Source: Clostridia bacterium (GTDB lineage: Bacteria; Bacillota; Peptococcia; DRI-13; SM3-B62). From it: a stretch of DNA of 64,000 nt. This document shows, one piece after another, positions 4,942 through 22,800 of this stretch. The position numbers and the translations under genes were made by a program. Where the stretch lies: the NCBI GenBank assembly GCA_018433675.1, contig JAHDQS010000001.1:42232-106231 (forward strand). The letters are read 5' to 3'. Each line of letters opens with the position of its first letter. Position 1 is the stretch's first letter. The notes under the pieces are model-generated. The model ran no database searches. It was not told where the DNA came from and saw only the letters and a program-made list of their open reading frames with translations.

Positions 4942-5116
4942 TTTGAACTGAATTATGAATACTAATTGACAAATGTTATCATATAAATCCAACATATCCC
5001 GTTTTGAAAGCGGAGCTTATAACCCTTCACTGGATTTTGTCACTAAAATCGTCCGTAGCCTTGGCAAGGAAATCCATATTACAATTAACTGAATCGGGCA
5101 GTAGACAAACACGGTT

Positions 5117-8100
5117 TCAACACATTACCTTATCCAATAACGCCGCATAGCCGTCCACCACGTCATACACAACCGAATCTGTACTGATGGCTTTAAAATG
5201 TTCGCGGGCACAATGGACTTTTGCTTCTTCGACCATACGCAGTTGCATAGTGGACATGGAGCCTTTTGTCTCTGCAACAAAGTAGATATGCTTCACTTTA
5301 CCCTCATGAAAGGCTATCGCCCAATCCGGGTTATATTTCCCTACCGGAGTACTGATAAAAAAACCGCTTGGCAGCTTCACATATACCGCAACTTCGTTGC
5401 TGGTATCAACGCTTTCCGCAAAGGTTCTCTCCTTTGCGGAGTCATAGATGATGTGGTCATAGAGATGCTTTTTTGCCGCCATTGCGTTTACTCCAAGCTC
5501 TCCTTTTAGTGTCGGCTCAGTGAAAATAATAGTGTCATATACTGCATCCAGCTTATTATAAGTAATATGCTGGATTATTGTCGTCGCTTTTTGCTCGTTT
5601 ATAATCTGTGCTGCTTTGATTATAAATTCCTCAGGATTCGTAGCAAATTGATGGAATACTGTCTTTTCGATACCACGCAGGATACTCACAACCGCTTTTC
5701 GGGTAAGCCCGGTTTCGGTGACTGCTTTATCGATAAGATCATATTTTACTGCGCTATTTGCGGAGACTTTAGCTTTGTAAACCTCATTTTCCTCCCTCAC
5801 AAAGGCAGTTCCCTCCCGCAGTTGTTCACGTGATTGAATGTCTGTCATCGTGCCGGTTTCAACCTTGAAAAATATTTTGGAAACACGAAGCTCACGATTC
5901 AGTGCCGCTATCGCTTTCCGAATTAATTCGTTCTGATCAAACTCCACCACATATGCAGATTTGACGTTAATATTTGCCCATAATTTTTGGAATTCAGGCA
6001 AGCCCAGTTTGGATTTGTCGATCTTTAATTCAACATTGTTTTTCCGCGCATTCTCAGGCTGCATAGCTCGACTGTCATAAATAGAATCGAGAATCGCTAT
6101 TATGGAATCTTTGCAATCCACAGCTTCTTCCGCGATTTCTATCTTACCATTTGTTTTATCCTCATAATATTTATCTGTAAGGATTCCTTTCTTTACATAT
6201 CCGCAAGTAATAAGCCCCTCGTAAATACTCTGCGCAAGATCGATATCTACGACCTGCTCAACTCCATTAATATCTTTAATGACCTTGTTCTTGAATAAAT
6301 CTACCGTCACCATACGAGGCCGGTCGGCTACTGCCTCAGCAAGCTCGCTCTGGAGACCCTTGGCAAAGCTGTCATAACTTTCATTGGCAACAACAGTTAG
6401 GACATTCACGTTATGAACATCCTGGCCCAGCAAGTTCGAATCCATGCGTTCTCCGCTTTGGTTTACAGATAACCGCAATCCACGCCCGACTTCCTGACGT
6501 CTGCGAACATCACTGCCACTCTGCTTAAGGGTACATATCTGAAACACGTTGGGATTATCCCAGCCTTCGCGCAGAGCAGAGTGAGAGAAAACAAACCTCA
6601 CCGGCTCACGCCGATCCAACAGGCGCTCTTTGTTTTTCATTATCAGATCGTAAGCGTTCACATCGTCGGAGGTGCGCTCCCGTCTATCGCCTAATTTGCT
6701 ATCTATCATACGCTGGCTTTTTTTATCTATGGAAAAATAGCCTGTATGTGTTTCCTCCTGTCTTATTCTGTCAAGATATTTCAGATATCCATCGCTATCG
6801 CCGATTGCAAGCTGAAGATTGCCAATAACTTGCTTGTATTCTTCCTCGAACATATCTGCATACAAGCCGTTAAAAGCTTGCCCGGTGTCATCATATTGCC
6901 TGTATTTTGCGACCTCGTCAATAAAAAATAATGATAGTACCTTAATGCCTTTATAGAACAACTGCCGTTCCCGCTCAAGGTGAGAGAGGATGGTCTCGCG
7001 CATTTGGATGCGCCTAAGTTGATCCTCGCTGACCGCCCCGATTACTTCACCTGCAAAAACCTTGATGCCGTTAGTGAACTCGATGGAACTGTCTCTTCCG
7101 TCAATCTTCAACACGGTATAACCGTTTTTATATTCTGCCAGTTCACCGGAATTGGGGAACAAGTTATATCCCTCTCCAACTATCCGTGTTGCTTTGCGGA
7201 CACCGTTCGCTCCCTTCACGTCAAACTCGATGGTGGCAGTAGGATTGCCCTTGGAGAGATTGATTCCTTCAAGGTACACATATCCTTCGGTTGCTGTAGT
7301 ACCCGTAACGGAAATTCCTTTAACGGCAATCTTTTTGACCAGCTTTTTGTTATATGCCTCCATCGCGTCAAGGCGGTAAACCATATTGTATACGCTGTCT
7401 TTCTTGTGTGTCGCGGAATAGCGCAAAGTGAATAACGGATTAAACTCTTTTAAGCGCTCCTTGGTGGCAGCACCTTCTACCGACTGAGGCTCATCAATAA
7501 TCAAAATGGGATTCGTTTTCGCCAGAATATCTATAGGCTTGCGGCTTCTGAATTCATCCAGCTTCATGTAAATGCGGCGGGCATCCTTGCCACGGGCGTT
7601 AAATGCCTGCGAATTGATAATCATTACATTGATGGAACTATCGGAAGCAAAGCGATCTATCTCAGTCAGCTGCGCCGAATTATAGATGAAATAGCGGATT
7701 TTCTTTCCATATTCCTCTGCAAAATGTTCCTCTGTAATCTGAAACGACTTATACACGCCCTCGCGTATGGCGACACTAGGCACAACGACAATGAACTTGC
7801 TCCAGCCATACCGCTTGTTGAGTTCATACATGGTCTTGATATATGTATATGTTTTCCCAACACCGGTTTCCATTTCCACAGTCAGATTATACCGACCCTC
7901 CATTTGCTTGGAAGGCTCAATTTGATTGCTGCGCTGGATTTTGTTGATGTTTTCAAGAATAACTCCATCGTTCAATTCCGGCACAATCCTGAAATTACCA
8001 AAACCAGTAAAGCGCTCCGCTTCATCAAGTGTCATCTGTTCGTTTCTTATATAGCCCTTGTCCATCATATAGCTGGGCGTAAGATAAGGCTGTCCGGCAA

Positions 8101-8164
8101 AAACATCGCATACGGCTTTTGCCGCATCCGCCTGGAATTTTTGGTGCTTGAACTGCAGCTTCAT
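5117..8164 (-). CDS. Type III restriction Res-like helicase-nuclease (SF2 helicase plus C-terminal PD-(D/E)xK-like nuclease), 1015 aa
   Basis: Readable motifs: METGVGKTYTY (motif I), IIDEPQ (motif II), REGWDNPNVF..QEVGRGLRL (helicase C / motif VI) and a C-terminal YNPDW..FVAETKG nuclease-like motif. Its ATG overlaps the rhuM stop (ATGA at 8161-8164). Confidence 0.85.
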   Translation of the reverse strand: MKLQFKHQKFQADAAKAVCDVFAGQPYLTPSYMMDKGYIRNEQMTLDEAERFTGFGNFRIVPELNDGVILENINKIQRSNQIEPSKQMEGRYNLTVEMETGVGKTYTYIKTMYELNKRYGWSKFIVVVPSVAIREGVYKSFQITEEHFAEEYGKKIRYFIYNSAQLTEIDRFASDSSINVMIINSQAFNARGKDARRIYMKLDEFRSRKPIDILAKTNPILIIDEPQSVEGAATKERLKEFNPLFTLRYSATHKKDSVYNMVYRLDAMEAYNKKLVKKIAVKGISVTGTTATEGYVYLEGINLSKGNPTATIEFDVKGANGVRKATRIVGEGYNLFPNSGELAEYKNGYTVLKIDGRDSSIEFTNGIKVFAGEVIGAVSEDQLRRIQMRETILSHLERERQLFYKGIKVLSLFFIDEVAKYRQYDDTGQAFNGLYADMFEEEYKQVIGNLQLAIGDSDGYLKYLDRIRQEETHTGYFSIDKKSQRMIDSKLGDRRERTSDDVNAYDLIMKNKERLLDRREPVRFVFSHSALREGWDNPNVFQICTLKQSGSDVRRRQEVGRGLRLSVNQSGERMDSNLLGQDVHNVNVLTVVANESYDSFAKGLQSELAEAVADRPRMVTVDLFKNKVIKDINGVEQVVDIDLAQSIYEGLITCGYVKKGILTDKYYEDKTNGKIEIAEEAVDCKDSIIAILDSIYDSRAMQPENARKNNVELKIDKSKLGLPEFQKLWANINVKSAYVVEFDQNELIRKAIAALNRELRVSKIFFKVETGTMTDIQSREQLREGTAFVREENEVYKAKVSANSAVKYDLIDKAVTETGLTRKAVVSILRGIEKTVFHQFATNPEEFIIKAAQIINEQKATTIIQHITYNKLDAVYDTIIFTEPTLKGELGVNAMAAKKHLYDHIIYDSAKERTFAESVDTSNEVAVYVKLPSGFFISTPVGKYNPDWAIAFHEGKVKHIYFVAETKGSMSTMQLRMVEEAKVHCAREHFKAISTDSVVYDVVDGYAALLDKVMC

Positions 8165-9216
8165 TTATCATCACCTGTCTTCTTGGCTTGCTCTTCGAGC
8201 TCTGTTAAATATTTGTCGTAATCGGACATAAAGAGCCTGTCCTGAACAATACGGTACTTCTCAAATTCGCTTTCAGCATGAGATTTGGCAATCTCTGCGG
8301 TAATTTGCCCCGTTTTCTTCAGAATTGCATGGTCATCAGCTTGTAAGAATATATCGAGTCGCTTTGCCCAATCTTCCATTGTCATCGGGATACGCCGTCT
8401 GGCTCTGTTCTCCGCAAGGTCAAGATACGCTGATACAATCAGTTGAAGGGAGCGCATCTCATCTTCGGAAAGATAGTTTTTAGCTATTGAAACATCGCTC
8501 CTGATGATTTTACCGTCCGGTGCATCTTTCCAAGTAGTAAGCCCCATATAAGGCTTTTTAGCATCGGCACGTTTGTATATTACTTCTGCCGCTGTATTGC
8601 CATGAACAGCAAAGTGCATCTTATTTTGTACTTTTGCAAAAAATTCTTTTGTCGTCTTGGCTGATTTATCATAATCGAGGGCAGTAGCGTAAATATCGGT
8701 AATTTTTTGATAGAATTTCCGTTCGCTAAGACGTATCTCACGAATTTTTTCAAGCTGTTCCTCAAAATATTTGTCAGTGAGGATACTGCCACCATTTTTA
8801 AGACGTTCGGAATCCATAACCCAGCCTTTTATCGTATATTGCTCTACGATCTGGTTTGCCCAAACACGAAAGCGAACAGCCCGTTGATTGTTGACCTTAA
8901 ACCCAACGGCAATAATCATTTGCAGATTATAATGGTTTGTATCATACTGCTTACCATCAGCAGCAGTTATTAAGTATTTCTTAATAACTGCATCCGGCTC
9001 CAATTCACCGTCATCAAAAACCTTTTTGATATGCTGGTTGATAGCGGAAACAGACACATCGTACAACGTAGCCATCATCTTTTGCGTCAGCCAGATATTT
9101 TCTTCCTCATACCGCATTTCAAAGCTATCCTGACTGTCGCCTGTTGATGCTACAAAAGTCAGGTATTCGGCGGCGGAACTTCTGATTGTTATTTCGTTTT
9201 TCCTTTTCTTTGCCAT
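8161..9216 (-). CDS. RhuM-family protein, 351 aa
   Basis: The translation (IRSSAAEYLTF..ENIWLTQKMMATLYDVSVSAINQHIKKVF..NLQMIIAVGFKVNNQRAVRFRVWANQ) matches the RhuM family as I recall it. An AAGGGGG RBS precedes the ATG. Confidence 0.8.
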   Translation of the reverse strand: MAKKRKNEITIRSSAAEYLTFVASTGDSQDSFEMRYEEENIWLTQKMMATLYDVSVSAINQHIKKVFDDGELEPDAVIKKYLITAADGKQYDTNHYNLQMIIAVGFKVNNQRAVRFRVWANQIVEQYTIKGWVMDSERLKNGGSILTDKYFEEQLEKIREIRLSERKFYQKITDIYATALDYDKSAKTTKEFFAKVQNKMHFAVHGNTAAEVIYKRADAKKPYMGLTTWKDAPDGKIIRSDVSIAKNYLSEDEMRSLQLIVSAYLDLAENRARRRIPMTMEDWAKRLDIFLQADDHAILKKTGQITAEIAKSHAESEFEKYRIVQDRLFMSDYDKYLTELEEQAKKTGDDK

Positions 9217-9282
9217 ATCGCCTAACCCCCTTTACAGCACTTTCGCGCTCGTATTCAGTGCAAACAGCTTAAACCCCATCCT

Positions 9283-10896
9283 TCAATAAGGCGCATACTT
9301 TCCCATGACCTTTTCTGCCGCTTTAAGTCCGTCAACCGCAGAAGACATAATGCCACCGGCATAGCCTGCCCCTTCTCCCACAGGATATATCCCCTGTATG
9401 TTGGTTAAACCTTGTTCGTCCCTGTTTATCCTCACCGGAGAAGAACTCCTGGTCTCAACACCTGTCAGGACAGCATCCGGGGCGGCAAAGCCCTTTATTT
9501 TAGCATCAAAATGCCTTAAGGCTTCTTTGATTGTCGCGACAGCATAATCAGGCAGACATTCCTTCAGCGGAGCAAAGGTAACCCCGGGCTTATAGGTAGG
9601 TATAACACTGCCCCATTGGGTACTAGGTCTGTCTCTGAGAAAATCCTCAACCAATTGAACCGGGGCCTGATAATCTTCTCCCCCTATCTCATAAGCCAAC
9701 CGCTCCCACTTTCTCTGGAATTCGATGCCTGCCAAAGGATGCCGGCTGGGATAATCGGCAGGTGTAACCCCCACTAACAAGGCCGCATTGGCATTCCTGC
9801 CATCCCTCCTATATTCACTCATCCCATTTGTGACAACACATCTTTCTTCCGAGGTAGCACCAACGACATAACCGCCGGGACACATACAAAAGGTATAAGC
9901 TGATCTGCCCTTTTTCGCATGATAAGCAAGCTTATAATCAGCCGCTCCCAACCCGGGTTCTCCGGCAGCAATTCCGTACTGCCCCTTATCAATAGTTTCC
10001 TGTAAATGCTCAATCCTAACTCCAATGGAGAAGGCTTTCTGACTCATAACAACGCCTCTGTTGTACAGCACCTCAAAAGTATCCCGGGCGCTGTGCCCGA
10101 TTGCCAACAGTACGACTCTACAAGGTAGCCTCTCTTTATCATTGATTACTACAGCTTCAATCCTGTCATCCTTGATGATAAAATCGGTTGCTTTGGCTTG
10201 AAACCTAACCTCGCCCCCGCAAGCGATGATTTCTTCCCTGATATTCTTAACCGCAGACCTGAGCAAATCCGTACCGATATGGGCTTTGCTCCTATATAAT
10301 ATTTCCGGAGGTGCCCCGGCCTTGATAAACTCTTTTAATATCATGCGGCACCTTCCGTCGTTTATCCCGGTGGTAAGCTTTCCATCGGAAAACGTACCTG
10401 CACCACCCTCGCCAAATTGCACATTGCTGTCGGTATCAAGCAGACCGTTTTCCCAGAACTTACTTATTCTAACTGTTCTATCCTCCACCGCTTCTCCTCT
10501 TTCCAGGAGGATAGGTCTGTAGCCATTCTTAGCCAGCATCAATCCGGCAAAAAGACCTGCCGGTCCCGTACCTATCACCACAGGTCTTTCAGGCATTTCT
10601 TCAGTTCCCGGTTGAATACGGTACTCAGACATAACCGGGGTTTGCGTTATACTGCTTTTTGAACGGTCCTTATCAAGAATTACTTTTTCATTTCCAACAC
10701 TGACATCTACCGTATAGACAAAGGAAATATTTCCTTTTTTTCTGGCGTCAATTGACTTTTTAAATATTTCAAATCCCAGCAGTTCCTGCTTATTAATCCT
10801 AAGCTTACTGAGGATAGCTTTTTTTAAGGCTTGCCTTTCCATCTCAGTATTTGCGGCTTCTTTTACCCTTATTTTAATATCTGTAAGCCTAACCAT
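9283..10896 (-). CDS. FAD-dependent protein (COG2509-type uncharacterised dehydrogenase), 537 aa
   Basis: Dinucleotide-binding motif VVIGTGPAGLFAG and a C-terminal YPVGEGAGYAGGIMSSAVDG motif. It is a paralogue of the gene at 58068-59474. Confidence 0.7.
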   Translation of the reverse strand: MVRLTDIKIRVKEAANTEMERQALKKAILSKLRINKQELLGFEIFKKSIDARKKGNISFVYTVDVSVGNEKVILDKDRSKSSITQTPVMSEYRIQPGTEEMPERPVVIGTGPAGLFAGLMLAKNGYRPILLERGEAVEDRTVRISKFWENGLLDTDSNVQFGEGGAGTFSDGKLTTGINDGRCRMILKEFIKAGAPPEILYRSKAHIGTDLLRSAVKNIREEIIACGGEVRFQAKATDFIIKDDRIEAVVINDKERLPCRVVLLAIGHSARDTFEVLYNRGVVMSQKAFSIGVRIEHLQETIDKGQYGIAAGEPGLGAADYKLAYHAKKGRSAYTFCMCPGGYVVGATSEERCVVTNGMSEYRRDGRNANAALLVGVTPADYPSRHPLAGIEFQRKWERLAYEIGGEDYQAPVQLVEDFLRDRPSTQWGSVIPTYKPGVTFAPLKECLPDYAVATIKEALRHFDAKIKGFAAPDAVLTGVETRSSSPVRINRDEQGLTNIQGIYPVGEGAGYAGGIMSSAVDGLKAAEKVMGKYAPY

Positions 10897-12499: not shown

Positions 12500-12501
12500 A
12501 C

Positions 12502-13245
12502 TTATTCACCAAGCCTCAATATTCTCGCCAGCAAGATAGCCAGAAAATATAAAAGCACTAAAGGAAGTGCTACAGCCAATTGACTGATAAAATCCGGCGG
12601 TGTGATGGCGGCAGCCACTACAAAGATTCCCACAATAACGTACCTGCTCAACCGAAAAACAGTTTTGCGCTTAACCAGACCCAAGGCCATTAAAACCATT
12701 AAAACAATAGGGCTTTGGAAGGCTACTACCGACCAGAGAATAAACGAGAAAACATAAAAGATGTTCCGACCATAATTCAATAACAAGCCGACATCACCGG
12801 GGATGAAAGACTTGTTGGTAAGAAAAGATATTGAGAAGGGTATTAGCTTAAAATATGAAAAGTATGCACTGACCGCAATCAGAATAAAGCTGGCAAACAA
12901 AGAAACGACAAATATTCTTTTTTCCCGGGGAAGCAGTCCCGGAAAGATAAAACGAACGGCATTGTAAAAATGTACCGGCAGTGAAAATATCAGTCCTGCC
13001 AAAAAGGACAGCTTTACTCTGACGGAAAAACCCTCAAAGATAGTAGTCATATAGAGATTAGCTCCCCCGGCGCTGGGAATTCCTGCATACTGCTTTAAAA
13101 ATACCTCCACAATACCCTCAAAGGCAAAAAAGGCCGCAAAAGAACAGACCGCAAAAAAAACCAGTGAAATAAGCAATCTGCGCCTCAACTCACGGATATG
13201 TTCCAGCAGCGGCATATTGGTATCCGCAAAATCCTTCTTACTCAT
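12502..13245 (-). CDS. tatC: Twin-arginine translocase subunit TatC
   Basis: PLLEHIRELRRRL N-terminus and a six-TM profile typical of TatC. Its ATG overlaps the tatA stop (ATGA). Confidence 0.9.
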   Translation of the reverse strand: MSKKDFADTNMPLLEHIRELRRRLLISLVFFAVCSFAAFFAFEGIVEVFLKQYAGIPSAGGANLYMTTIFEGFSVRVKLSFLAGLIFSLPVHFYNAVRFIFPGLLPREKRIFVVSLFASFILIAVSAYFSYFKLIPFSISFLTNKSFIPGDVGLLLNYGRNIFYVFSFILWSVVAFQSPIVLMVLMALGLVKRKTVFRLSRYVIVGIFVVAAAITPPDFISQLAVALPLVLLYFLAILLARILRLGE

Positions 13246-13409
13246 TCCTTTGTTGTTTCCTCTTTTTCAGTATCTTCCACCTCTTCAGACGCTTGATTAA
13301 ACTCCTTTTTTGCCTCGCCTAAGGAACGGGCCAGCTTGGGAATAGCGGAAGCGCCAAAAAGCAGCACAACGATCAAAAGAATCACTAAAAGCTCAGTAGA
13401 ACCAAACAT
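13242..13409 (-). CDS. tatA: Twin-arginine translocase subunit TatA (55 aa; below the ORF-track cut-off, found by manual translation)
   Basis: The manual minus-strand translation is MFGSTELLVILLIVVLLFGASAIPKLARSLGEAKKEFNQASEEVEDTEKEETTKE. A GGGGG RBS lies 9 nt upstream, and the stop overlaps the tatC ATG. Confidence 0.8.
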   Translation of the reverse strand: MFGSTELLVILLIVVLLFGASAIPKLARSLGEAKKEFNQASEEVEDTEKEETTKE

Positions 13410-13496
13410 GATAGCTTACCCCCTTTGATGTAAATTATACTGTTACCTGTTCTTCTTGTCCATTTCCCATTTTTCCTGATTGCTTCTTTTCTCCAT

Positions 13497-13536
13497 AAGA
13501 TAACTGAAGGGAACTTTCGCTCCCTTCAGTTATCTT
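13497..13536 (-). terminator. Hairpin H1 (16-bp perfect arms) overlapping the abiEii stop codon; member of the island hairpin family
   Basis: AAGATAACTGAAGGGA-ACTTTCGC-TCCCTTCAGTTATCTT. The core GAAGGGAACTTTCGCTCCCTTC (13506-13527) is 20/22 identical to the core of the hairpin at 20307-20328. Confidence 0.6.
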
Positions 13537-14437
13537 ATGTCCTAAAACAATCAGATATAATTACTTTTTGTATGCCCGTTATTGCTTCATCATATTTAAC
13601 ATTGACGAATAATAACTTTTCAGTAAGATCCGAATAATCTTGTTCGTAATAGCCTGAGGAAATAATATCTTCCAAGAGTTGATTAATATCAAATATGTCG
13701 AGGGCTGACGAACATATTTTTTGGCTTTTCCTTAATTCGCGTACTTTTACAATAAGTTTCTTAAGCTCATCATCTATGGGAACCACTGACAGAAGCATGT
13801 ATATATCATAAATGTGTCTGGAGTGCTTGGGTTTTTTGTTATTTAAATAATAGTCGCAAAGAGCAAATACTTTGTCAATAAGAGTTCTGCGCAAATCTTG
13901 CACACACATTTCAAACGGTGTTAACTGGTATCTTTCGGCAATATCTTCTCTTCTGATCTTTTTAAGAAACTGGTAAATATAATTGTCCACAAGCCTATTC
14001 TCTGTAGGCAAGTATTCTACCCCTGTATACGTTTCGATAATTATTTCTGGACTAATCCCCTCTTCATAAAGGGGCTCATACTCCACAACATAGCGATTAT
14101 AATCAAGCCCGCTACGGATTTCATCGGCGTTTTTTATCGCCAATCCCAATCCTTCTACTGCAACAAAAACAGCCTTCTTCAGTTTGCTTTTCTGTCCTTG
14201 GGTTACCTTGCCACGAACGGAAATGTCAATATCCTCGGAAAAACGTTTAATAACATGAAAACATTTAGAGAGTGAAGTTCCGCCTCTAAATATCAAATTC
14301 TCATGAGCTTTATTCAATTCATGCAAAGCAGCCGAAACATAGCAGTCTTTTTCAATAATTTCCGGAGGGATGCTGTATTCTTCACTTGTAGCAACAATTA
14401 AATCTCGGAAATCTTCTGGGTTTTTATACAAATACAT
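13535..14437 (-). CDS. AbiEii/AbiGii-family nucleotidyltransferase toxin (type IV TA / abortive infection)
   Basis: EKDCYVS..LIFRGGTSLSKCF..RFSEDIDI motifs characteristic of the AbiEii (DUF1814) family. There is a 14-nt overlap with the upstream antitoxin gene, and the region is visibly AT-rich. Confidence 0.85.
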   Translation of the reverse strand: MYLYKNPEDFRDLIVATSEEYSIPPEIIEKDCYVSAALHELNKAHENLIFRGGTSLSKCFHVIKRFSEDIDISVRGKVTQGQKSKLKKAVFVAVEGLGLAIKNADEIRSGLDYNRYVVEYEPLYEEGISPEIIIETYTGVEYLPTENRLVDNYIYQFLKKIRREDIAERYQLTPFEMCVQDLRRTLIDKVFALCDYYLNNKKPKHSRHIYDIYMLLSVVPIDDELKKLIVKVRELRKSQKICSSALDIFDINQLLEDIISSGYYEQDYSDLTEKLLFVNVKYDEAITGIQKVIISDCFRT

Positions 14438-15059
14438 TCAATAACCCGCTTTCAACTATTTTCTTTGAAACCTTAGACGGATAGAAACGCAAGTAATCAA
14501 GCACCGCAAGTTTATGGAGATCGCTTGAAATTATATAATTTTTTATGATGTCGTATGTTTTGTCTGTATCATACTCCGACCATTTTTCGCATTCATTTAT
14601 TGCGTCCAACAATTGGAGGATTTTATAATTTCCTTTTTTGACTGTGGCTCGTGAACATCTTAAACGAATTGTATTGTTTTTAACCTTAACGTTTCTACCT
14701 CTACTGGCCTCTCTATTCGTAGCAATTTCCTTGACAGATGGGACCTGTGTAGTAAGGCCAATTTGATTCGCAAAAGTCAGTCCCGTGTAATAACCGTACA
14801 CATCATTGTCATCCCTTATATATTTTTTAACGATTACTTTGTTTGCATCAAGAAACGCTTTGCCTAATAAAGAAGATTTTTTGGGTATATAATAAACCCC
14901 TGCATCAAAGCGACTCAGTTTTCCGTCATCCACTAAACGTTTTAATAATTGGCGAAGATAATTGTACTTCAAATTATTAAAGTTGAGTTCTTCTAGTAAT
15001 ATGGGTTCATTTGGTTTATATTTATTTTGCAATGCCGCGTATACCATTTTTTTGTTCAC
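14424..15059 (-). CDS. AbiEi-family antitoxin / transcriptional autoregulator
   Basis: N-terminal winged-helix-like LRQLLKRLVDDGKLSRFDAGVYYIPKK, positioned directly upstream of and overlapping abiEii. The start is either GTG at 15059 or the ATG 21 nt downstream. Confidence 0.75.
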   Translation of the reverse strand: MNKKMVYAALQNKYKPNEPILLEELNFNNLKYNYLRQLLKRLVDDGKLSRFDAGVYYIPKKSSLLGKAFLDANKVIVKKYIRDDNDVYGYYTGLTFANQIGLTTQVPSVKEIATNREASRGRNVKVKNNTIRLRCSRATVKKGNYKILQLLDAINECEKWSEYDTDKTYDIIKNYIISSDLHKLAVLDYLRFYPSKVSKKIVESGLLNVFV

Positions 15060-15071
15060 TTCCCTTCGCTC

Positions 15072-15118
15072 CTATTGTAACTAATTCATACTTGTTTTGT
15101 CAACATATGTTACAATAG
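15072..15118 (-). promoter_or_regulatory. Candidate abiE promoter flanked by a 10-bp perfect inverted repeat (putative AbiEi operator)
   Basis: The minus strand reads TTGACA (15098-15103), an 18-nt spacer, then TACAAT (15074-15079). The inverted repeat CTATTGTAAC (15072-15081) / GTTACAATAG (15109-15118) brackets the -35 and covers the -10. Confidence 0.6.
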
Positions 15119-15148
15119 TATACGCTTAATATCCGTTTTTATTCGCTG

Positions 15149-16057
15149 TTATTCCTCCCTAGTTAACCCGGCCAAAAGATTAATCCCGACCTCCGAGGCT
15201 TTTGCGTAGACCGGTTCGAGGGTTTTTAATATATTTTCTTCCCCGCGCCAGAAAGGAAAGTCGCCCAGTTGTTTTAATAGTGTCGCCCGTGAAGATGATG
15301 GCTTTGTCTCTATCAGAAAATCTGCAGGCAGCGGTCCTCCTTCCCAAAAATCCTTAGGATCGCTTGAAATTCCGCCTGCTTGAATATCCTCATACCCGCT
15401 GTCAAATGTTTGTGTTTCTGAATCCCCCCTCTTTTTAGCGGGAACCGCTTCCTCTCCACCGGATAATTTCTTTATCATTTCCGCACGTTCCATCCCGCGC
15501 AGCTTAAAAATCAGAAAGGGGTCGCGGTCAAACTCCTCACCTATGATATAGTACACTGCGGCAATATGTTTGCAAGGATTAGACCAGTCCGGGCAGGAAC
15601 AATCGGTTTCAATGTCGTCAATTCGGTTGGGGAAAAGCGAAACCCCCGCCCCGGAAAAAACCTCTTCAATGTCAAGCGGCATCTCCCCGGCTAGTAACCG
15701 CGCAGCAAAAATAGCTTCCTGAGACAGCTTTGCCATTACCTTGTCCCATTCAGCGGCAGACAACACCCTGACCTTGATGTCAACTTTATAAGGTTTAATC
15801 CGGGAACCTTGGACCTTGGCCTTTACACTTCCACCCTTTATATCCACGGACAGAACCTGCCCGCTTCTGGCATAGGAGCGCCCTCTGGTGAGCCTGGCCC
15901 CTAGGTTAAACCCTTCCAGCGTTTGGTTCCAGCGTTTTGCCCACCAGTTTTTGCCGAAAGTTCTTCCCTTACCTTTGGCTTTAATCCCGTTTTTCGCCTC
16001 ACGGGGCTTGGACGGGGTATATTTCCTGTAGTAATCAAAATCATCCCATTGCCCCAT
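15149..16057 (-). CDS. SWIM zinc-finger protein (COG4279-like), 302 aa
   Basis: CSCPDWSNPCKH is a SWIM CxC..CxH signature. The start lies 2 nt after the SNF2 stop. Confidence 0.85.
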   Translation of the reverse strand: MGQWDDFDYYRKYTPSKPREAKNGIKAKGKGRTFGKNWWAKRWNQTLEGFNLGARLTRGRSYARSGQVLSVDIKGGSVKAKVQGSRIKPYKVDIKVRVLSAAEWDKVMAKLSQEAIFAARLLAGEMPLDIEEVFSGAGVSLFPNRIDDIETDCSCPDWSNPCKHIAAVYYIIGEEFDRDPFLIFKLRGMERAEMIKKLSGGEEAVPAKKRGDSETQTFDSGYEDIQAGGISSDPKDFWEGGPLPADFLIETKPSSSRATLLKQLGDFPFWRGEENILKTLEPVYAKASEVGINLLAGLTREE

Positions 16058-16059
16058 TC

Positions 16060-19000
16060 TTAATCACCTACCATTTCCCGGCGCAAGGCCCAAATTTCCC
16101 GAAGCTCGGTAGTCGAAAGCTCGGTCAACCAGCTGTCCCCGCTGCCCACTATTTTGTCCGCTACGTCCTTCTTTTTCTCGATCATCTCGTCAATTCGTTC
16201 TTCCACCGTACCGGCCACTACGAATTTATGAACCTGTACATTTTTTGTCTGCCCGATTCGGAAGGCTCGATCCGTGGCTTGGTCTTCCACCGCCGGATTC
16301 CACCAGCGATCAAAATGGAAAACATGATTAGCCTGGGTTAGGTTGAGCCCGGTTCCTCCGGCTTTCAGTGAAAGAATAAAAAAAGGCGGACCGGCTTCAT
16401 CCTGAAACAGTTCAACCATTTGGTTTCTCTCTTTAGAAGAAACGCCTCCGTGCAGAAAAAGAACCTGGCAGCCAAATGTTTCTGCGAAATGACGATGCAG
16501 GATATCGCCCATTTCAGTAAACTGAGTAAAGATCAAAGCCCGTTCGCCCATCTCCAGTATTTCTTCGCACATTTCCGTCAGACGCTGCATTTTCCCGGAC
16601 CGTCCCGCCATAGTGGATTTATCCTTCAGGAACTGGGCCGGATGATTACAAACCTGTTTTAACCTGGATAAGGCTGAAAGAATCAAGCCCTTGCGCTCAA
16701 TACCCTCCGCTCCCTCCAGTCCTGCTTCTACTTCTTTGACAACAGCGGCATAAAGGGAGGCCTGTTCTCTGGTCAGAGTACAAAACACCTTCATTTCCAT
16801 CTTATCCGGGAGATCGTCGATAATTGACTTGTCCGTTTTCATCCTTCTTAAGACAAATGCTCCGGTAATCTTTTTTAATCTTTGAGCCGCATCATTATTG
16901 CCGCTAACCTGAATCGGAATCAAAAACTCTCTTCTGAAGTCTGTTTGCCCCCCCAGTAAACCGGGATTCATAAACTGCATCAGGGACCACAAATCACCAA
17001 CATTATTCTCCACCGGGGTTCCTGTCAACGCCAGCCTATATCCGGCTTGAATATTACAGGCAGCCTGAGCCTGCTTGGTGCCGGCGTTTTTAATATTCTG
17101 GGCCTCATCCAGGATGATTCCTGACCACTGTATCCCTCGGAAGAGCTCCTGATCACGGTACAATAATCCATAACTGGTCAAAACCACCGCATTTTCTTCC
17201 GTTTTCTTTTGAAATTCCTCTATGTCTTTAATCCGTTCGGCTCCGTGATGCACCCAGAGGGAAAGTTCCGGCGTGAACCGGGCCGCTTCCTTCTGCCAGT
17301 TTCCTACCAATGAAGTGGGACACACTAAAAGCGCCGGGCGTTTTTCGCCCCTTTCCCTATTGTGCTGCAGTAAGGCTAAAGTCTGAATCGTCTTACCCAA
17401 ACCCATATCGTCCGCCAGACAAGCACCAAAACCCCATTGACACAAGAAATGTAACCAAGAATAGCCTCGCAACTGGTAGTCCCGCATCTGTCCCTTAAAC
17501 CCTCCGGGTTGCGCTATCTCCTGCCAAGGGCTATGACCTTCCATCTTCTCAAGAAGATCTTTTACCCAGCCTTCGGCCTGTAACCCTGCAAAAGCCAGTC
17601 CGCCCGGCGCGCGAACCGCTCCCAACGCCAGGCGCACAGCCTCACCGATAGTAAGGAGTTTCTCGCCTTTTTGCCTTTCGGCTAAGAATCCCTTGATGCT
17701 CGCTGCTTCGAATGCCACCCAACGGCCACGCAATTTGACCAGCCCTGACTTCATTTTGGTCAACAGTTCCAGTTCCTGTTCAGTCAGCGTCTCATCGCCC
17801 AAAGCCATCTCCCAGTTAAAGCTAATGACCCGATCGGCTGTAAGTCCTGCCGATATTTGCATTTTGGACGGATTTAAACGCACCTTGGCACTGAGTCCCT
17901 TTTGAGCTTTTTTCTTGGTCCACCAGCCCGGTACCTGTATAATAAATCCGCTCTGTTCCAAGAGTGGTGCTTTCTCTGTCAAGAATTCGTAGGCTCCGGC
18001 ATTATCCAACAAGTATCCTTGAGGAACCGGGGTCCGAAGGCTTTCTTGTATATGGGAACACAGCCCGGCAACCTGTCCTAAGGCCGTTAGCACAAGTTCT
18101 CGCACTGAAACATTCCTGTCCTTAAAAATTTTAGCTTTTTTGCCACGTGCCCGCCAGGCTTCCTCTACAGGAATCTGCAGGCTGGGATCATCAACAGCTT
18201 GCAGCAAATAGCATAGGGACCAATCGTCGGATGTAGTTGGTTCTTCCAGACGAAAACAAAACCTGAAAGGGGCATTCGACAGGTAATAGACCTTGCGCTG
18301 CCAATCCTTAACCTGCGCAACAAACTCGGTCAGCTTGTCCTCTTTGTCATGCAGCAGCCCTGTAGCATCCCGGAGGGCTGCAAGCCACCTGTCATGCAGA
18401 CTTTGATGACTTGCCGGTTCAGCATACGTTTCGCCCCTGTCCAAGTCTGCCCGCACAACTGCGTTCACGAAACCACCGACAGCCTCCGTCACAACCGACA
18501 GAGGACCGGTTGCCGGCTCTATCCCCTTTTCCGCTGTAGCCCGGCATACCGCAGGCATTATTTCACTTAACACCCTAAGCCTGTCCAAATCATGGCCGGT
18601 AAAAACCGGGTCCCAGCAAGCATAATACTTTTTAGCTGTCATGGATATCCCCGGTATAAATCTTTCCCGCGCCACCAAACTTCCGGCCAGGCGCAATACC
18701 TGAGTCCAAAAGGCCACATCCCGGCTCACCACCACGCCGGGCGCTACAACCCGTCGTCCCATACAAACCGTCAATAAAGAAACGGCTTGTCTTGCATTAA
18801 GATTTAAGGTTGTTACCTTCCAGGGCTGTAATTTTATTTCTTCCTGAGATTCTAATTGCTCCGATACTAGCCTTCTTGAGGCAAGCGGCCTTCCGGAAAT
18901 AGTGGGAAGCCATATTTCCATTTTGTGGGTCTTTGTCTCGGCAATTTCTTCTTCAATGCCATCCACCGCCAGGGCATTTTTTAACAACTTAGCGGATACG

Positions 19001-19146
19001 TCAAAGGGAAAGGGAAAGGGTTCAGTCTCCCCCTCCTTCTTTTTTCGTTTGCGCCCCCGCCCGGTCGACATTCCTTCATCGGGAAGCATTTCCCCCCAAA
19101 TAAACCAATTTCCGCTATAATAGCTTAAATGTAAAATAATAATCAT
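16060..19146 (-). CDS. SNF2-family helicase with a long bacterial SNF2-associated N-terminal region, 1028 aa
   Basis: [10 protein letters not shown] (motif I), [10 protein letters not shown] (motif II), LTGTPVEN (motif III), and helicase-C [28 protein letters not shown]. Confidence 0.9.
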   Translation of the reverse strand: [1028 protein letters not shown]

Positions 19147-19272
19147 TTCTCACTCTCATTTCACCACAACATTATGTCCTCTGTTAAATCCTCGCGAAAT
19201 TCATTCTATCACAATCTTAATATTCCGGCACTGTTAAGCAGTTCTTCATTAAATAAAGTTCAATACTACCCA

Positions 19273-19310
19273 GAAATAAAGAAGGAAGCTTTCGCCCCCT
19301 TTGTTATTTC
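19273..19310 (-). terminator. Hairpin H3, candidate terminator of the MNT-HEPN operon; degenerate member of the island hairpin family
   Basis: Minus-strand RNA reads AAGGGGGC-GAAA-GCUUCCUU (two G.U pairs) followed by CUUUAUUUCU. The core at 19281-19302 matches 18/22 to each of the H1 and H2 cores. Confidence 0.55.
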
Positions 19311-19332
19311 TTGTCTCAAACTGTTTACTAAT

Positions 19333-19725
19333 CTATATCGAGCCTGTCTTATCCCTGGCTATTGCAAGCAATTCTTCAGCTATTGTACTCGCACGTAATA
19401 CCTCTTCCTTATTTATCTCATTCGGAATATCAGGAGGATATCTTGTTTCAATATAATAATCGTCTATTGTCATGCAATCGTCTTGATATTCTTCGAATAA
19501 TCGGTCGTGTTTTATACATAAACCGAGCAAATTTCCGATTGAATGGCCTTTTACTATATTCCCTGTCTTGTGCAACAAATACGCCTTCAACACTTTCTCA
19601 ATTGCTTGTTGAAGCAAAAACGCTGCAACATTGACCGGCCCCTCATTATTTAGAACTATTTCAGCCGCAATGTAATCCTGCTTCGCTTTTTCGATCCAAT
19701 CGAGACTATTTGTACTATCTACCAT
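19333..19725 (-). CDS. HEPN-domain protein (toxin of an MNT-HEPN pair)
   Basis: AIEKVLKAYLL..GHSI and ETRYP (Rx4-6H-type region) typical of HEPN. I chose the start at MVDSTN (19725), which overlaps the MNT stop by 11 nt; the track ORF extends to 19791. Confidence 0.8.
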   Translation of the reverse strand: MVDSTNSLDWIEKAKQDYIAAEIVLNNEGPVNVAAFLLQQAIEKVLKAYLLHKTGNIVKGHSIGNLLGLCIKHDRLFEEYQDDCMTIDDYYIETRYPPDIPNEINKEEVLRASTIAEELLAIARDKTGSI

Positions 19726-20044
19726 GTAATACCACACCTTCTTTAGCAATAATACTGGCCATCGTTCCAGCCTTTTTTGAAATCCGCTCAAACTGCTGAG
19801 GTGTGTATAATATAATATCTACCGGTTTATCAAGGTAATTAAGACCATCCGTTTTATAAATATAACCCCGTATGTTCCTTCTCAATAATCTAACATTTCC
19901 TTCTTCAATGTCTGCAATAATACAAATATCAATATCACTATCTTCTGTTGCATCTTCTCGCGCATGCGAACCGAATAGTATTATTTTTTGCGGACTAAAT
20001 TTATCAATTATACCGTTGGTTAGTTTTTTAATATCATTTTTCAT
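19715..20044 (-). CDS. Minimal nucleotidyltransferase (MNT) antitoxin
   Basis: ILFGSHAREDATEDSDIDICII is the GS..D.D nucleotidyltransferase signature. I chose the start at MKNDIKK (20044) because a GGTTTGGAG RBS precedes it. Confidence 0.85.
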   Translation of the reverse strand: MKNDIKKLTNGIIDKFSPQKIILFGSHAREDATEDSDIDICIIADIEEGNVRLLRRNIRGYIYKTDGLNYLDKPVDIILYTPQQFERISKKAGTMASIIAKEGVVLHGR

Positions 20045-20296
20045 AATCTCCAAACCACCTTTAAACATATTATAACACAATCCCATGATTTGGAACCACT
20101 AAGCCTTGTATAACTCTAAATGGGAGTACGTCACCTCTTCCATATTATTATATGATGCGTTTATTATACGTTTTCCATTTTCTAAATAACATTATGCTTC
20201 GTTCCATTATCGTTGTAATTTTTGTTATAATATGCGGGCGGTATGGTGGTGCCGCGAATCAGAATGCTTTGGAAAAGCATTCCAGCCCAACTCATC

Positions 20297-20339
20297 AAAC
20301 TGTAAAGAAGGGAGCTTCCGCTCCCTTCTTATACAGTTT
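20297..20339 (-). terminator. Hairpin H2, candidate cotJ operon terminator; member of the island hairpin family
   Basis: AAACTGTAAAGAAGGGAGC-TTCC-GCTCCCTTCTTATACAGTTT is a 19-bp stem with one bulge, lying 5 nt downstream of the cotJC stop. Confidence 0.6.
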
Positions 20340-20343
20340 GACT

Positions 20344-20916
20344 CTAATAAAACTTCTTCTCGTTCAGGAAACATTGTACGTCGTTCAACGCCTCGCCGAA
20401 GCGTTGGAAGTGAACCACTTCACGCTCTCTCAAGAACCTCAGTGCATCAATAACACCCGGGTCGTCGCTCAGGTTAATTAAGTAGTCATAGGTTACCCGC
20501 GCTTTTTGCTCTGCCGCCATATCTTCCGTAAGATCGGCTATCGGTTCGCCCTTAGTCTGAATGTAAGTCGCCGTCCAAGGATTACCTGAGGCATCCATGT
20601 AGAAGGGAGCTCTATCGTGATCGGCATAATGGCTTCCCAAACCTTCCTTTTTCAGTTGTTCCACGGTGGCATCCTTGAGAAGCTTGTAAACCATCGTGGC
20701 AATAATCTCCAAATGGGCAAATTCCTCGGTACCAATATCCGTCAGCAGAGCCTTTGTTTTCCCCGTCGGCATGGTATAACGCTGATTCAGATAACGCAGT
20801 GCTGCACCCAATTCACCATCCGGACCGCCGTACTGGGTAATCAGGTATTTTGCTAATTTGACATTACAACCATCTACTCGTACGGGGTATTGCAGTTTTT
20901 TCTCATAAATCCACAT
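20344..20916 (-). CDS. cotJC: Manganese-catalase-family spore coat protein CotJC
   Basis: MWIYEKKLQYPVRV..QYGGPDGELGAALRYLNQRY..EEFAHLE. I chose the start at 20916 because a GGGGGGGAAG RBS precedes it; the track ORF extends to 21024. Confidence 0.9.
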   Translation of the reverse strand: MWIYEKKLQYPVRVDGCNVKLAKYLITQYGGPDGELGAALRYLNQRYTMPTGKTKALLTDIGTEEFAHLEIIATMVYKLLKDATVEQLKKEGLGSHYADHDRAPFYMDASGNPWTATYIQTKGEPIADLTEDMAAEQKARVTYDYLINLSDDPGVIDALRFLREREVVHFQRFGEALNDVQCFLNEKKFY

Positions 20917-20933
20917 AACTCTTCCCCCCCTTC

Positions 20934-21209
20934 CTACATTTCCCAGGGCCAGGGTTCTTCGACCCAACGCCAGTGAGAGCTGAAACCACCCGAAAAACCG
21001 TAATTTAAAAGCGGTCCGTAGCATTCTACATATTTTTCGACCTTCTTAGCGAGCTCACAGCTCACTTGGTTAAATTGCTCCAATGCCCTGTTGTCTCCCG
21101 GATGGGTGTCAAGATATAGGTTTAAATCTAAGGCAGTAAATTCATATTCTTGTATCTCCTTCAACATATCCATCCGTCTCCTATCTGTATGCATAGGGGG
21201 CACCTCCAT
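20934..21209 (-). CDS. cotJB: Spore coat protein CotJB
   Basis: LKEIQEYEFTALDLNLYLDTHP signature. The start codon is uncertain (21209, 21194 or 21173). Confidence 0.8.
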   Translation of the reverse strand: MEVPPMHTDRRRMDMLKEIQEYEFTALDLNLYLDTHPGDNRALEQFNQVSCELAKKVEKYVECYGPLLNYGFSGGFSSHWRWVEEPWPWEM

Positions 21210-21606
21210 ATCCGTAAACTCCCTTGGGCATAAATAGTTCGGGGAATATTGTTCCCTTTTCCAAGCCTTCGCCGGGAGAATAAACTACGTTGTAGTATTG
21301 CCAGGGTACATAAGCATGGGCCAACCTTTCCGGACACATCGGACATTCCGGCATATACGGATACCCCATATATGGTTGGTAGGGAATAGGACTCGGCTGA
21401 TAATACGGCATTTCCGGACACGGAATCTGTGGAGGGTCTGGACACGGATGATGCGGAGGGTCCGGTTTCGGCATGACGGGCTTGGGCGGGCAAGGCCCGC
21501 CAAAAGGAACTTGCATTGGCCCCTGCGGTCCGGCTTCTTCTTTTACTTCTTTATTTTTCTCTGGTTTTTCAGGCCTGGGTCTTACCTTAAACGTGTAATT
21601 TCGCAT
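21181..21606 (-). CDS. cotJA: Spore coat-associated protein CotJA with a Pro/Cys-rich N-terminal extension
   Basis: C-terminal AYVPWQYYNVVYSPGEGLEKGTIFPELFMP matches CotJA. I chose the start at MRNYTF (21606) because a TAGGAGG RBS precedes it. Confidence 0.75.
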   Translation of the reverse strand: MRNYTFKVRPRPEKPEKNKEVKEEAGPQGPMQVPFGGPCPPKPVMPKPDPPHHPCPDPPQIPCPEMPYYQPSPIPYQPYMGYPYMPECPMCPERLAHAYVPWQYYNVVYSPGEGLEKGTIFPELFMPKGVYGYGGAPYAYR

Positions 21607-21683
21607 TGGCTTTCCTCCTAAAAACAAGGTTCACTCTAATATATGCAGCCAACAGACATGCCGTCACTATTCTTAAAAAACAC

Positions 21684-21710
21684 AAAAAAAAAAGAAGACC
21701 TTTAAGGTCT
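21684..21710 (-). terminator. Intrinsic terminator downstream of the OYE gene
   Basis: Minus-strand RNA reads AGACCU-UAA-AGGUCU followed by a run of about ten U. Confidence 0.55.
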
Positions 21711-21744
21711 CCTAAGATCAATGTCTCAACAATTTATCCACAAA

Positions 21745-22800
21745 CTACCCGCCGTTTATATTTCTGGGGCATTTATCACCGTCTACATACCATTGGCATC
21801 TTCGACAGTGAAGACAAGTTTTTATCTCCCCTCCGTTGAAGGCTTTGTGGGCCCATTCAGGATCTGCCAAGTGCGCCCTTGCTAAGGCCACAAAATCTGC
21901 CAGATTGTTTTCTATCAGGTAGCTTGCTTCTTTTGGTGTCCTGATCCCGTTTACCACTATAACGGGAATCCCAACCTCTTTTTTTATTTCAGTTCCAAGG
22001 TAAACAATCCAGTTATATTGAAAGTCTGCGGGAACTTCTGTTGTTATCTCATCAAAGATACCCCAAGATACATGCAAAAGGTCGACTCCCTTGTTTTCCA
22101 AAACCTTGGCTATAATTTTACCTTCTTCAAGGGTTGGAGCATTGCCCCCAAAACGATAGCCGATAATGAATTCCGGCGAGACTGCTTCTTTAATTCCTGC
22201 AATAACTTCCAGGGCAAATCTCATTCTGTTTTCTAATGACCCGCCGTATTCATCTTCTCTCTTGTTGGTAATCGGCGACATGAACTGATCAAGCAGGTAA
22301 TTATGAGCTCCATGTATTTCAATCCCGCTGAATCCGGCCTTTTCGGCTCTCTTCGCCGCTTCAATAAAACGATTTTTAATCTCATATATTTCTTCCTTGG
22401 TCAAAGCCCTTGCCGTTACTCCCTTCCGAGTTATGTCGGAAGGGCCGACTATATCTTCGGTAACACCCTGGGCTGTCTTCATTCCGGCATCATGAATCTG
22501 AATAAGCACCTCTGCTTTATACTTGCGGCAAACCGCAACAATTTTGCTTAGACCTTCGATTTGTTCATCGGACCAGATGCCAAGTTGTGAACGCGCAAGT
22601 CTACCTTCTTTTCTGATAGCGGTTGCCTCGAGAATAATAAGCCCCGTGCCGCTTTTTGCTATTTTTTCGTAATGCGCAAGATGCCTCTCACTTACAAAAC
22701 CATCATCGTCACTCCAACCAAAACGGACAACCGGCGGTAGAACTATTCTGTTTTTAATCACCCGATCCTTGACTTTTATCTCCGAATTTAAATATGCCAT
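21745..22800 (-). CDS. Old-yellow-enzyme-family NADH:flavin oxidoreductase with a C-terminal Cys cluster
   Basis: HGAHNYLLDQFMSP OYE motif and C-terminal CLHCRRCQ..C (a 4Fe-4S-type motif as in the dienoyl-CoA reductase N-domain). I chose the start at MAYLN (22800) because a GGGAGGG RBS precedes it. Confidence 0.8.
   Translation of the reverse strand: MAYLNSEIKVKDRVIKNRIVLPPVVRFGWSDDDGFVSERHLAHYEKIAKSGTGLIILEATAIRKEGRLARSQLGIWSDEQIEGLSKIVAVCRKYKAEVLIQIHDAGMKTAQGVTEDIVGPSDITRKGVTARALTKEEIYEIKNRFIEAAKRAEKAGFSGIEIHGAHNYLLDQFMSPITNKREDEYGGSLENRMRFALEVIAGIKEAVSPEFIIGYRFGGNAPTLEEGKIIAKVLENKGVDLLHVSWGIFDEITTEVPADFQYNWIVYLGTEIKKEVGIPVIVVNGIRTPKEASYLIENNLADFVALARAHLADPEWAHKAFNGGEIKTCLHCRRCQWYVDGDKCPRNINGG

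Follow-up and report, generated by a model that had tools for sequence, protein, structure and literature searches.

Three homologous hairpins, probably intrinsic terminators, in a two-slot toxin-antitoxin hotspot between cotJABC and tatAC of a Clostridia bacterium

Introduction

The closest described relatives of the locus presented here are intrinsic (Rho-independent) terminators, accessory or defence hotspots, integron cassettes, islands that duplicate the 3′ end of a target gene as an attachment (att) site, and repetitive extragenic palindromes (REPs). The locus belongs to a 64,000-nucleotide (nt) stretch of the genome of a Clostridia bacterium (contig JAHDQS010000001.1, positions 42,232 to 106,231; hereafter the window), in which three hairpins, H1, H2 and H3, punctuate an island of toxin-antitoxin and defence-type genes between cotJABC and tatAC. 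A preliminary description of this DNA had suggested that cassettes were inserted or exchanged stepwise at a terminator hairpin, duplicated each time in the manner of an att site. We argue here that the hairpins are more probably homologous terminators descended from the cotJ terminator, and that the island turns over by other routes.

Intrinsic terminators of the bidirectional type have, as H1, H2 and H3 do, a G+C-rich stem, a stable tetraloop and an A-rich 5′ flank, and their U-rich 3′ flank recurs here with differing strength; they likewise stand at the 3′ end of an operon just before the next promoter, and their pairing is maintained at the RNA level. The hairpins of the island differ in being mutually homologous neighbours, in the near-perfect 21-base-pair (bp) stems of two of them and in the poor proximal U-tract of H1. 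Hotspots that exchange accessory or defence genes by recombination in their flanks share with the island conserved flanks around differing toxin-antitoxin or defence cargo in close relatives, raised divergence in the flanking genes, relics of former cargo and the absence of a local integrase. The island departs from them in its two adjacent slots around a conserved SNF2-SWIM gene pair and in that every occupied unit of the window ends in the same terminator family.

Integrons offer another likeness, since their cassettes are co-directional, often encode toxin-antitoxin pairs and are each ended by an imperfect-palindrome hairpin of one family (attC). Unlike in integrons, neither IntI nor another tyrosine recombinase was found, the stems are perfect or interrupted by G-U pairs only, with no extrahelical bases, the cassettes have their own promoters and unoccupied sites are hairpin-free. 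The RYYYAAC/GTTRRRY core sites are absent too: AAC...GTT stands beside the core in H1 only, where the YYY/RRR positions do not fit. In systems that duplicate the 3′ end of a target gene, such as tandemly accreted islands, and in elements of the skin/sigK type, the parallel lies in cotJC, which in relatives, as in many prophage contigs, is broken by serine-recombinase elements and which adjoins, as fragments, homologues of both cassettes. However, cotJC is intact in the window, the island contains no recombinase or cotJC fragment, and the repeat is only terminator-sized. Finally, REPs and the mosaic elements that they build (BIMEs) are also short extragenic palindromes at gene 3′ ends, able to act as terminators or mRNA stabilisers, but only three copies were seen here, all in 7 kb and with variable outer arms, and no RAYT gene was seen.

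Results

Three hairpins of one family end co-directional units

The three hairpins announced in the preliminary description are present at their positions (Table 1), and the core identities given there were reproduced, with 20/22 matching positions between H1 and H2 and 18/22 between H3 and each of the other two. Read in gene sense, the cores are GAAGGGAGC-GGAA-GCTCCCTTC in H2, GAAGGGAGC-GAAA-GTTCCCTTC in H1 and AAAGGGGGC-GAAA-GCTTCCTTC in H3, in each of which a GNRA tetraloop (GAAA or GGAA) closes a 9-bp stem, purine-rich on one side and pyrimidine-rich on the other. All three are direct copies in the same orientation. Their stems are lengthened by an A-rich 5′ arm and a U-rich 3′ arm, and the outer arms vary from copy to copy. 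Each hairpin stands where a co-directional unit has its 3′ end, shortly ahead of the next promoter, that of tatA lying ~32 nt downstream of H1. The 3′ tracts of H2 (UUUACAGUUUG) and H3 (UUUAUUUCU) are of the UUUA... type, and H3 was flagged as terminator-like by a terminator scan.

The hairpins are stable, with sense folds of -37.6 kcal/mol for H1 (z score -9.5), -34.3 kcal/mol for H2 (z -7.2) and -21.1 kcal/mol for H3 (z -3.5). When the best hairpin of each of the 28 intergenic regions of the window was considered, H1 and H2 ranked as the two most stable, and none outside the family had the shared stem, as had been noticed before. Comparison of the three copies showed that 26 of the 27 stem cells pair in the sense strand and that all one-sided stem changes (3/3) lead to G-U pairs, the same sites being A-C mismatches in the antisense strand. 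The antisense folds are weaker (-30.0 kcal/mol for H1 and -13.5 for H3), which leaves an advantage of 7-8 kcal/mol to the sense strand. Since these G-C to G-U changes pair in sense RNA only, H1, H2 and H3 are most likely intrinsic terminators. We infer a role at the RNA level as terminators and insulators and possibly, given the long stems, as stabilisers of 3′ ends. In the same vein, H1 is identical at 46/46 positions between the window and L082, one of two contigs from close relatives described below, with 11 substitutions and an indel (~7%) in the ~150 nt of flanking intergenic DNA.

H2 is predicted to be the native cotJ terminator, because its 5′ arm, GAAGGGAGCG, stands at the same offset past cotJC in L082 (2766-2775) and in the second relative, L081, and because in the nearest relatives cotJC is followed by terminators of the same type. 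These read AGAAGGGGGC-AAAAA-GCCCCTTC in L003, GGAGGGGAGC-CA-GCTCCCC in L002 and AAAGGGAGC-ATAA-GCTCCCTTA in L020. Between the cotJC stop codon and the core of H2, 5/15 nt match L082 (2751-2780 region), and the 5′ arm of the core is identical. In the window, this 15-nt stretch of H2 (20294-20342) is a perfect complement of the 3′ outer arm, which stops exactly at the start of a relic of an AAA_14 gene (TTTG). The pattern looks like extension or repair of the palindrome through templated synthesis.

The family is confined to the island

The hairpins had been described as the only ones of their kind in the 64 kb, and a consensus search allowing up to three mismatches bears this out, with an expectation of 0.00 in shuffled sequences. 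A covariance model built from the three copies scored H1-H3 at 47-51 bits and, with filters off, no other site of the window above 14 bits, and no Rfam family matched positions 12500-22000 at E <= 1. The other 57 kb of the window yielded no further copy, and the 41 kb of the two relatives only the orthologue of H1. In 80 other Bacillota, whose cotJ neighbourhoods amount to 1.38 Mb, a single look-alike within four mismatches was detected, the cotJC terminator of L020, and 0.86 Mb of prophage contigs contained none; the covariance model scored nothing above 30 bits in either set. The base rate in comparable DNA is thus ~1 look-alike per 2 Mb, from which it follows that three copies in 7 kb are not due to chance. 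Despite the generic design, their occurrence within 7 kb of one genome requires common descent or templated copying.

This type of hairpin nevertheless arises repeatedly as an ordinary terminator. A degenerate pattern matched at least 120 metagenome stretches with G+C contents of 29-67%, always one per locus, most of the matches having the form AAAGGGAGCGAAAGCTCCCTTT and then a T-run. In IMG/VR, this exact 22-mer was counted 64 times and permuted-stem controls 8, 23 and 57 times. Homologues of the island genes were encoded at none of the 184 hairpin-bearing metagenome or viral loci.

Close relatives reveal two cargo slots around a conserved gene pair

In the protein collection, TatC has two cluster mates only, which gave the contigs L081 and L082, ~92% identical to the window at the nucleotide level and 99% to each other. 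The GTDB species representatives reach at most 80% identity in CotJC, and none has cotJ adjoining tatA, SNF2 or SWIM. Outside this close pair, identity to TatC is only 54-56% even among the best homologues, several of which are labelled Spirochaetota (Rectinemataceae, Breznakiella), not Bacillota.

Alignment of the cotJ-tatA interval, proposed earlier as a check, revealed different cargo on the same flanks, and the whole 6.8-kb block is not conserved synteny. In the window, cotJABC and H2 are followed by a first slot with AAA_14 relics and then MNT-HEPN and H3, by SNF2-SWIM, by a second slot with AbiEi-AbiEii and H1, and by tatAC. L082 has only the 5′ arm of H2 after cotJABC, ParE and AAA_14/DUF4143 genes on the opposite strand in slot 1, SNF2-SWIM, and in slot 2 AbiEi, an internally deleted AbiEii and H1 before tatAC. 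L081 has the left flank of L082, but with an element that interrupts cotJC at codon ~65, and the same slot 1; its SNF2 is split in two and followed by SWIM, and its slot 2 is empty, the SWIM stop codon leading straight into the tatA promoter and tatAC without H1. The idea that cargo changes in this interval is therefore supported, since both slots differ among the three genomes, but that of the hairpin as an att-like site is not (see below). SNF2-SWIM, kept at 90-97% nucleotide identity in L081 and L082, is a conserved backbone between two slots rather than a cassette, so that the island is not a stack of three cassettes. Two details concern single genes of the relatives. At 9600-9700 of L082, the antitoxin gene AbiEi is kept and the toxin gene AbiEii is lost save its last ~50 nt. 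At 5926-8853 of L081, the SNF2 gene is called as 754 + 176 amino acids (aa), a split that may be a frameshift or an assembly error.

The flanks carry possible traces of exchange. Against a background of 92-96% identity between the window and L082, values of only 78-88% were measured over cotJB-cotJC (20300-21200) and of 80-84% at the 3′ end of SWIM (15053-15446), and this rise in divergence sits in the flank just upstream of each slot. The CotJC protein is still 93% identical between the two. The pattern suggests recombination tracts from a more divergent donor beside both slots, as expected of exchange through homologous recombination. A second accessory insertion, a variable block of 4.2 kb (5109-9292) that neither relative has, lies only 3 kb beyond tatC. 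Its products are a ResIII helicase of 1015 aa, whose C-terminal domain is RE_endonuc, and a RhuM-family protein of 351 aa, and no methyltransferase was seen adjoining this restriction-type gene.

Unoccupied sites are free of hairpins

If the hairpin were duplicated at each event in an att-like manner, a site without its cassette should keep one copy. This was not observed: the slot-2 site of L081, which has no AbiE, has no hairpin, and the point at which MNT-HEPN-H3 is inserted is hairpin-free in both L081 and L082. MNT-HEPN-H3 forms an insertion of ~880 nt (about 20134-19253) in the AAA_14/SNF2 intergenic region, with H3 inside it, ~20 nt from its right end. Because AAA_14 relics stand between this insertion and H2, the insertion did not occur via H2. 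H1 and H3 both belong to the variable DNA and are found at its 3′ end. The empty slot 2 of L081 is, by parsimony, best read as a secondary deletion, since AbiEi and H1 have the same position in the window and L082 and L081 is the sister of L082.

Beyond the core and the self-complementary arms, the flanks of H1, H2 and H3 are not significantly similar (40-nt local alignments against shuffles, p 0.04-0.9), and no flank duplication was found at the cassettes. Three schemes for the cassette borders were tried and rejected. A target-site duplication or common crossover motif was sought by eye (ATAAC, GAAGA) and gave no consistent scheme. A model of the IS200/IS605 type needs a hairpin at both ends of the unit, and the insertion has one. 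Finally, attL and attR sites of a serine recombinase would be hybrid half-sites, and each copy is its own near-perfect palindrome.

Homologues of both cassettes adjoin cotJC fragments

The closest homologue of MNT-HEPN lies in L083 (278-805, 80% nucleotide identity) and that of AbiEi-AbiEii in L204 (207-1746, 77%), the latter being homologous over window positions 15122-13569. Both are hairpin-free, and in both a 5′-truncated cotJC fragment, beginning at about codon 27, follows the cassette at 4-20 nt. The shortness of the two contigs would be expected had their assembly broken at a repeated stretch of cotJC. A search of IMG/VR for relatives of the two cassettes found none. In the same database, at least 120 prophage contigs end in cotJC fragments (the viral loci L358-L437 among them), which start at one of two points, YGGPDGE (residues ~20-30) or residues 61-64, before ELAHLE, and are preceded by sequences resembling the C-termini of serine recombinases. 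Serine-recombinase elements thus appear to integrate frequently in cotJC, and to do so at two fixed positions. L081 (1-3240, right end) and L083 (690-830, left end) provide the two ends of an element at codon ~65, with the inverted terminal sequences GATTGATAACAT(C/A)GTGG. In C. difficile, the prophage phi027 is reported to adjoin a CotJC-like catalase gene (PMC11222575).

In the island itself, tblastn found no additional cotJC fragment, and hence no cotJC relic before H1 or H3. It is plausible that H1 and H3 were picked up in cotJC-linked contexts, and they could also be what is left of cotJC 3′ ends that were duplicated. In L205, an AbiE cassette that is more distant (51% identity in AbiEii) has a different long palindromic repeat, GACAGGGGGACGG...CCGTCCCCCTGTC, on both sides (2270-2350 and 3950-4080), with a DUF4143 fragment and an open reading frame (ORF) resembling an rve-type transposase nearby.

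Gene content of the island

The gene order had been described correctly: all genes lie on the minus strand, from cotJABC through H2, MNT-HEPN, H3, SNF2 (with DUF3670), SWIM, AbiEi, AbiEii and H1 to the tatA promoter, tatA and tatC (Table 1). The true start of cotJC is MWIYEKK at 20916. Two relics of the alternative slot-1 cargo remain. One (20246-20299) is 54 nt from the interior of the AAA_14/DUF4143 ATPase gene and matches L082 3888-3941 at 94%; the other (20135-20218) derives from the region upstream of that gene and matches L082 4709-4790 at 79%. The overlapping MNT (Pfam Polbeta and NTP_transf_2, the latter at 3.1e-12) and HEPN (Pfam HEPN, 7.7e-27; 130 aa) genes are predicted to form an MNT-HEPN toxin-antitoxin pair. 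AbiEi (PADLOC, 8.8e-73) and AbiEii (PADLOC, 2.1e-79; Pfam AbiEii, 6e-28), whose genes overlap by 14 nt, are in turn predicted to form an AbiE system (type IV toxin-antitoxin, abortive infection). A promoter scan and a hairpin census placed the promoter of this cassette, TTGACA-18-TACAAT, inside the inverted repeat ACTATTGTAAC/GTTACAATAG (15070-15119). The repeat ACTATTGTAAC ... GTTACAATAG is conserved in L082 and in the distant cassette of L204, and for this reason it is probably the operator of AbiEi. PADLOC matches of the SNF2 protein to ZorD, DpdE and DrmD span the helicase core alone.

As had been stated from the first reading, there is no integrase: the 46 ORFs of the window that were scanned have no integrase, recombinase or transposase domain, and the genes called around the island in L081 and L082 gave none either. 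The remainder of the window is of housekeeping character (Mrp antiporter, SelA, SipL, DnaB, PurA and others).

Table 1. Features of the cotJ-tat interval, in window positions
Feature	Position	Parts and remarks	Strand	Basis
tat region, right flank of slot 2, conserved in L081 and L082	12502..13462	tatC 12502-13245; tatA 13242-13409; tatA promoter TGGACA-17-TATAAT 13434-13462	-	promoter scan, Pfam
H1	13494..13539	46-nt palindrome; core 13506-13527; 21-bp stem; overlaps AbiEii stop codon	-	
AbiE cassette, slot-2 cargo	13535..15122	AbiEii 13535-14437; AbiEi 14424-15059	-	PADLOC
SNF2-SWIM	15149..19146	SWIM zinc-finger protein 15149-16057; SNF2 helicase with DUF3670 16060-19146	-	Pfam
H3	19272..19311	core 19281-19302; begins 21 nt past HEPN stop codon; followed by UUUAUUUCU	-	
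MNT-HEPN, slot-1 cargo of the window genome alone	19333..20086	HEPN 19333-19725; MNT 19715-20086	-	Pfam
Relics of alternative slot-1 cargo	20135..20299		-	blastn against L082
H2	20294..20342	extended palindrome; core 20307-20328; begins 2 nt past cotJC stop codon	-	
cotJABC, left flank of slot 1, conserved	20344..21627	cotJC 20344-20916; cotJB 20934-21209; cotJA 21181-21627 (start uncertain)	-	Pfam CotJA, CotJB, Mn_catalase

Discussion

Taken together, we favour, with a probability of about 0.62, the view that H1, H2 and H3 are homologous Rho-independent terminators derived from the cotJ terminator and set in a two-slot toxin-antitoxin hotspot, which turns over by recombination in its flanks and by illegitimate deletion. 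H2 would close cotJABC, H3 would close MNT-HEPN, and H1 would close abiEi-abiEii together with any read-through from SNF2-SWIM, each hairpin probably insulating the promoter that follows. The setting would be an accessory hotspot in the order cotJABC, slot 1, SNF2-SWIM, slot 2 and tatAC, where toxin-antitoxin cassettes may be gained, swapped and eroded through homologous recombination in the conserved flanks. Illegitimate deletion or insertion would be the second process of turnover, and recombination at the hairpins would not be required. H1 and H3 would be cotJ-type terminators that became joined to the 3′ ends of the cassettes, probably while these sat in cotJC-linked contexts.

Several points weigh against this view. 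Homology is not expected between the terminators of unrelated cassettes. Since the closest homologues of both cassettes are hairpin-free, the hairpin is not simply the own terminator of each cassette. The proximal U-tract of H1 is weak (AGUUAUCUU, with 4 U in the first 8), and the stems of H1 and H2 far exceed what a terminator requires. Besides, two breakpoints touch hairpins, which would fit a role in recombination: the right end of the L081 deletion falls within ~3 nt of the 3′ foot of H1, and the homology between the window and L082 stops inside the loop of H2 (window 20315). Finally, the lineage is sampled by three genomes only in the databases.

A broader alternative, which we regard as doubtful, is that the hairpins are fossils of repeated integration at the 3′ end of cotJ, eroded to a chain of cassettes plus terminators, or that the palindrome served as a short-homology anchor for the capture of cassettes. 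Its most explicit form is unlikely. Here, elements or circles carrying a 3′ fragment of cotJC with its terminator would have integrated serially at cotJC, by site-specific recombination or single crossover, each event doubling the 3′ end of cotJC and its terminator, and the partial cotJC copy would later have been deleted, leaving cassette plus hairpin, with H1 as the original terminator beside tatA. The cassettes of L083 and L204, directly upstream of truncated cotJC, would fit such a history, and serine-recombinase prophages appear often to target cotJC at two sites, of which the one at codon ~65 is occupied in L081. The direct orientation of the hairpins, their cotJ terminator type and the unusual divergence of cotJC itself between the window and L082 point the same way. 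However, this divergence begins in cotJB and not at codon 27, the flanks of the hairpins lack significant similarity and no cotJC relic precedes H1 or H3, for which two clean deletions of ~500 nt would be needed. Moreover, the AAA_14 relics separate MNT-HEPN-H3 from H2, so that its integration took place neither at H2 nor in cotJC, and the window has no recombinase.

The model of the preliminary description, in which the hairpin is an active recombination site or fragile palindrome that captures and exchanges cassettes and is duplicated per event, fares worse, and we consider it improbable. It would account for the two breakpoints described above, including the retention of the 5′ arm of H2 alone in L082, for stems that are unusually long and perfect, and for directly oriented copies homologous to the terminator of cotJ. 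That the 3′ end of cotJ was copied in some way, along with turnover of cassettes, is plausible. Yet hairpins fill ~15% of the local intergenic DNA, and the coincidence of two breakpoints with them is for that reason not statistically significant. The unoccupied sites are hairpin-free, H3 is internal to its insertion, whose insertion point has no hairpin in the relatives, and the second variable block (5109-9292) has no member of the family at its borders. In addition, no recombinase was found, and the G-U substitutions indicate a constraint at the level of RNA and not of DNA.

It is still less probable that the family is a low-copy, REP-like mobile palindrome, spread in trans by a transposase encoded elsewhere, which landed after three neighbouring units. 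Such an element would explain why only ~25-40 nt are shared between differing flanks and why the copies are extragenic and at gene 3′ ends, and the AbiE cassette of L205 is indeed flanked on both sides by another palindromic repeat family. But the other 57 kb of the window and the non-orthologous parts of L081 and L082 are devoid of copies, the outer arms differ, unlike in REP families, whose unit is fixed, the cotJ terminators of other genera are orthologous in type to H2, and no RAYT-like gene was seen. Convergence of three unrelated terminators on a generic GGGAGC-GNRA-GCUCCC design is the least credible of all, for although the idealised 22-mer and its permuted-stem controls recur in IMG/VR, three copies in 7 kb are extremely unlikely at ~1 look-alike per 2 Mb and with no other intergenic hairpin of the window sharing this stem.

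To conclude, if H1, H2 and H3 are only terminators, the island is one more toxin-antitoxin and defence hotspot between conserved genes, in a barely sampled lineage of spore-forming Bacillota. Its value would lie in the natural series from a full AbiE cassette to the antitoxin only and then to nothing, and in the replacement of one cargo by another with relics left behind, both of which show turnover of the slots. The link between cotJC and the two types of cassette suggests the routes that such cassettes take, and a reason for which the cotJ terminator may have been left in copies behind them. Should the hairpins instead be fossils of integration or anchors for capture, they would point to an integrase-free, terminator-anchored route by which toxin-antitoxin and defence islands form beside a sporulation gene. 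Besides, the apparent targeting of cotJC by prophages at two positions, with toxin-antitoxin cargo at the ends of the elements, may merit separate attention.

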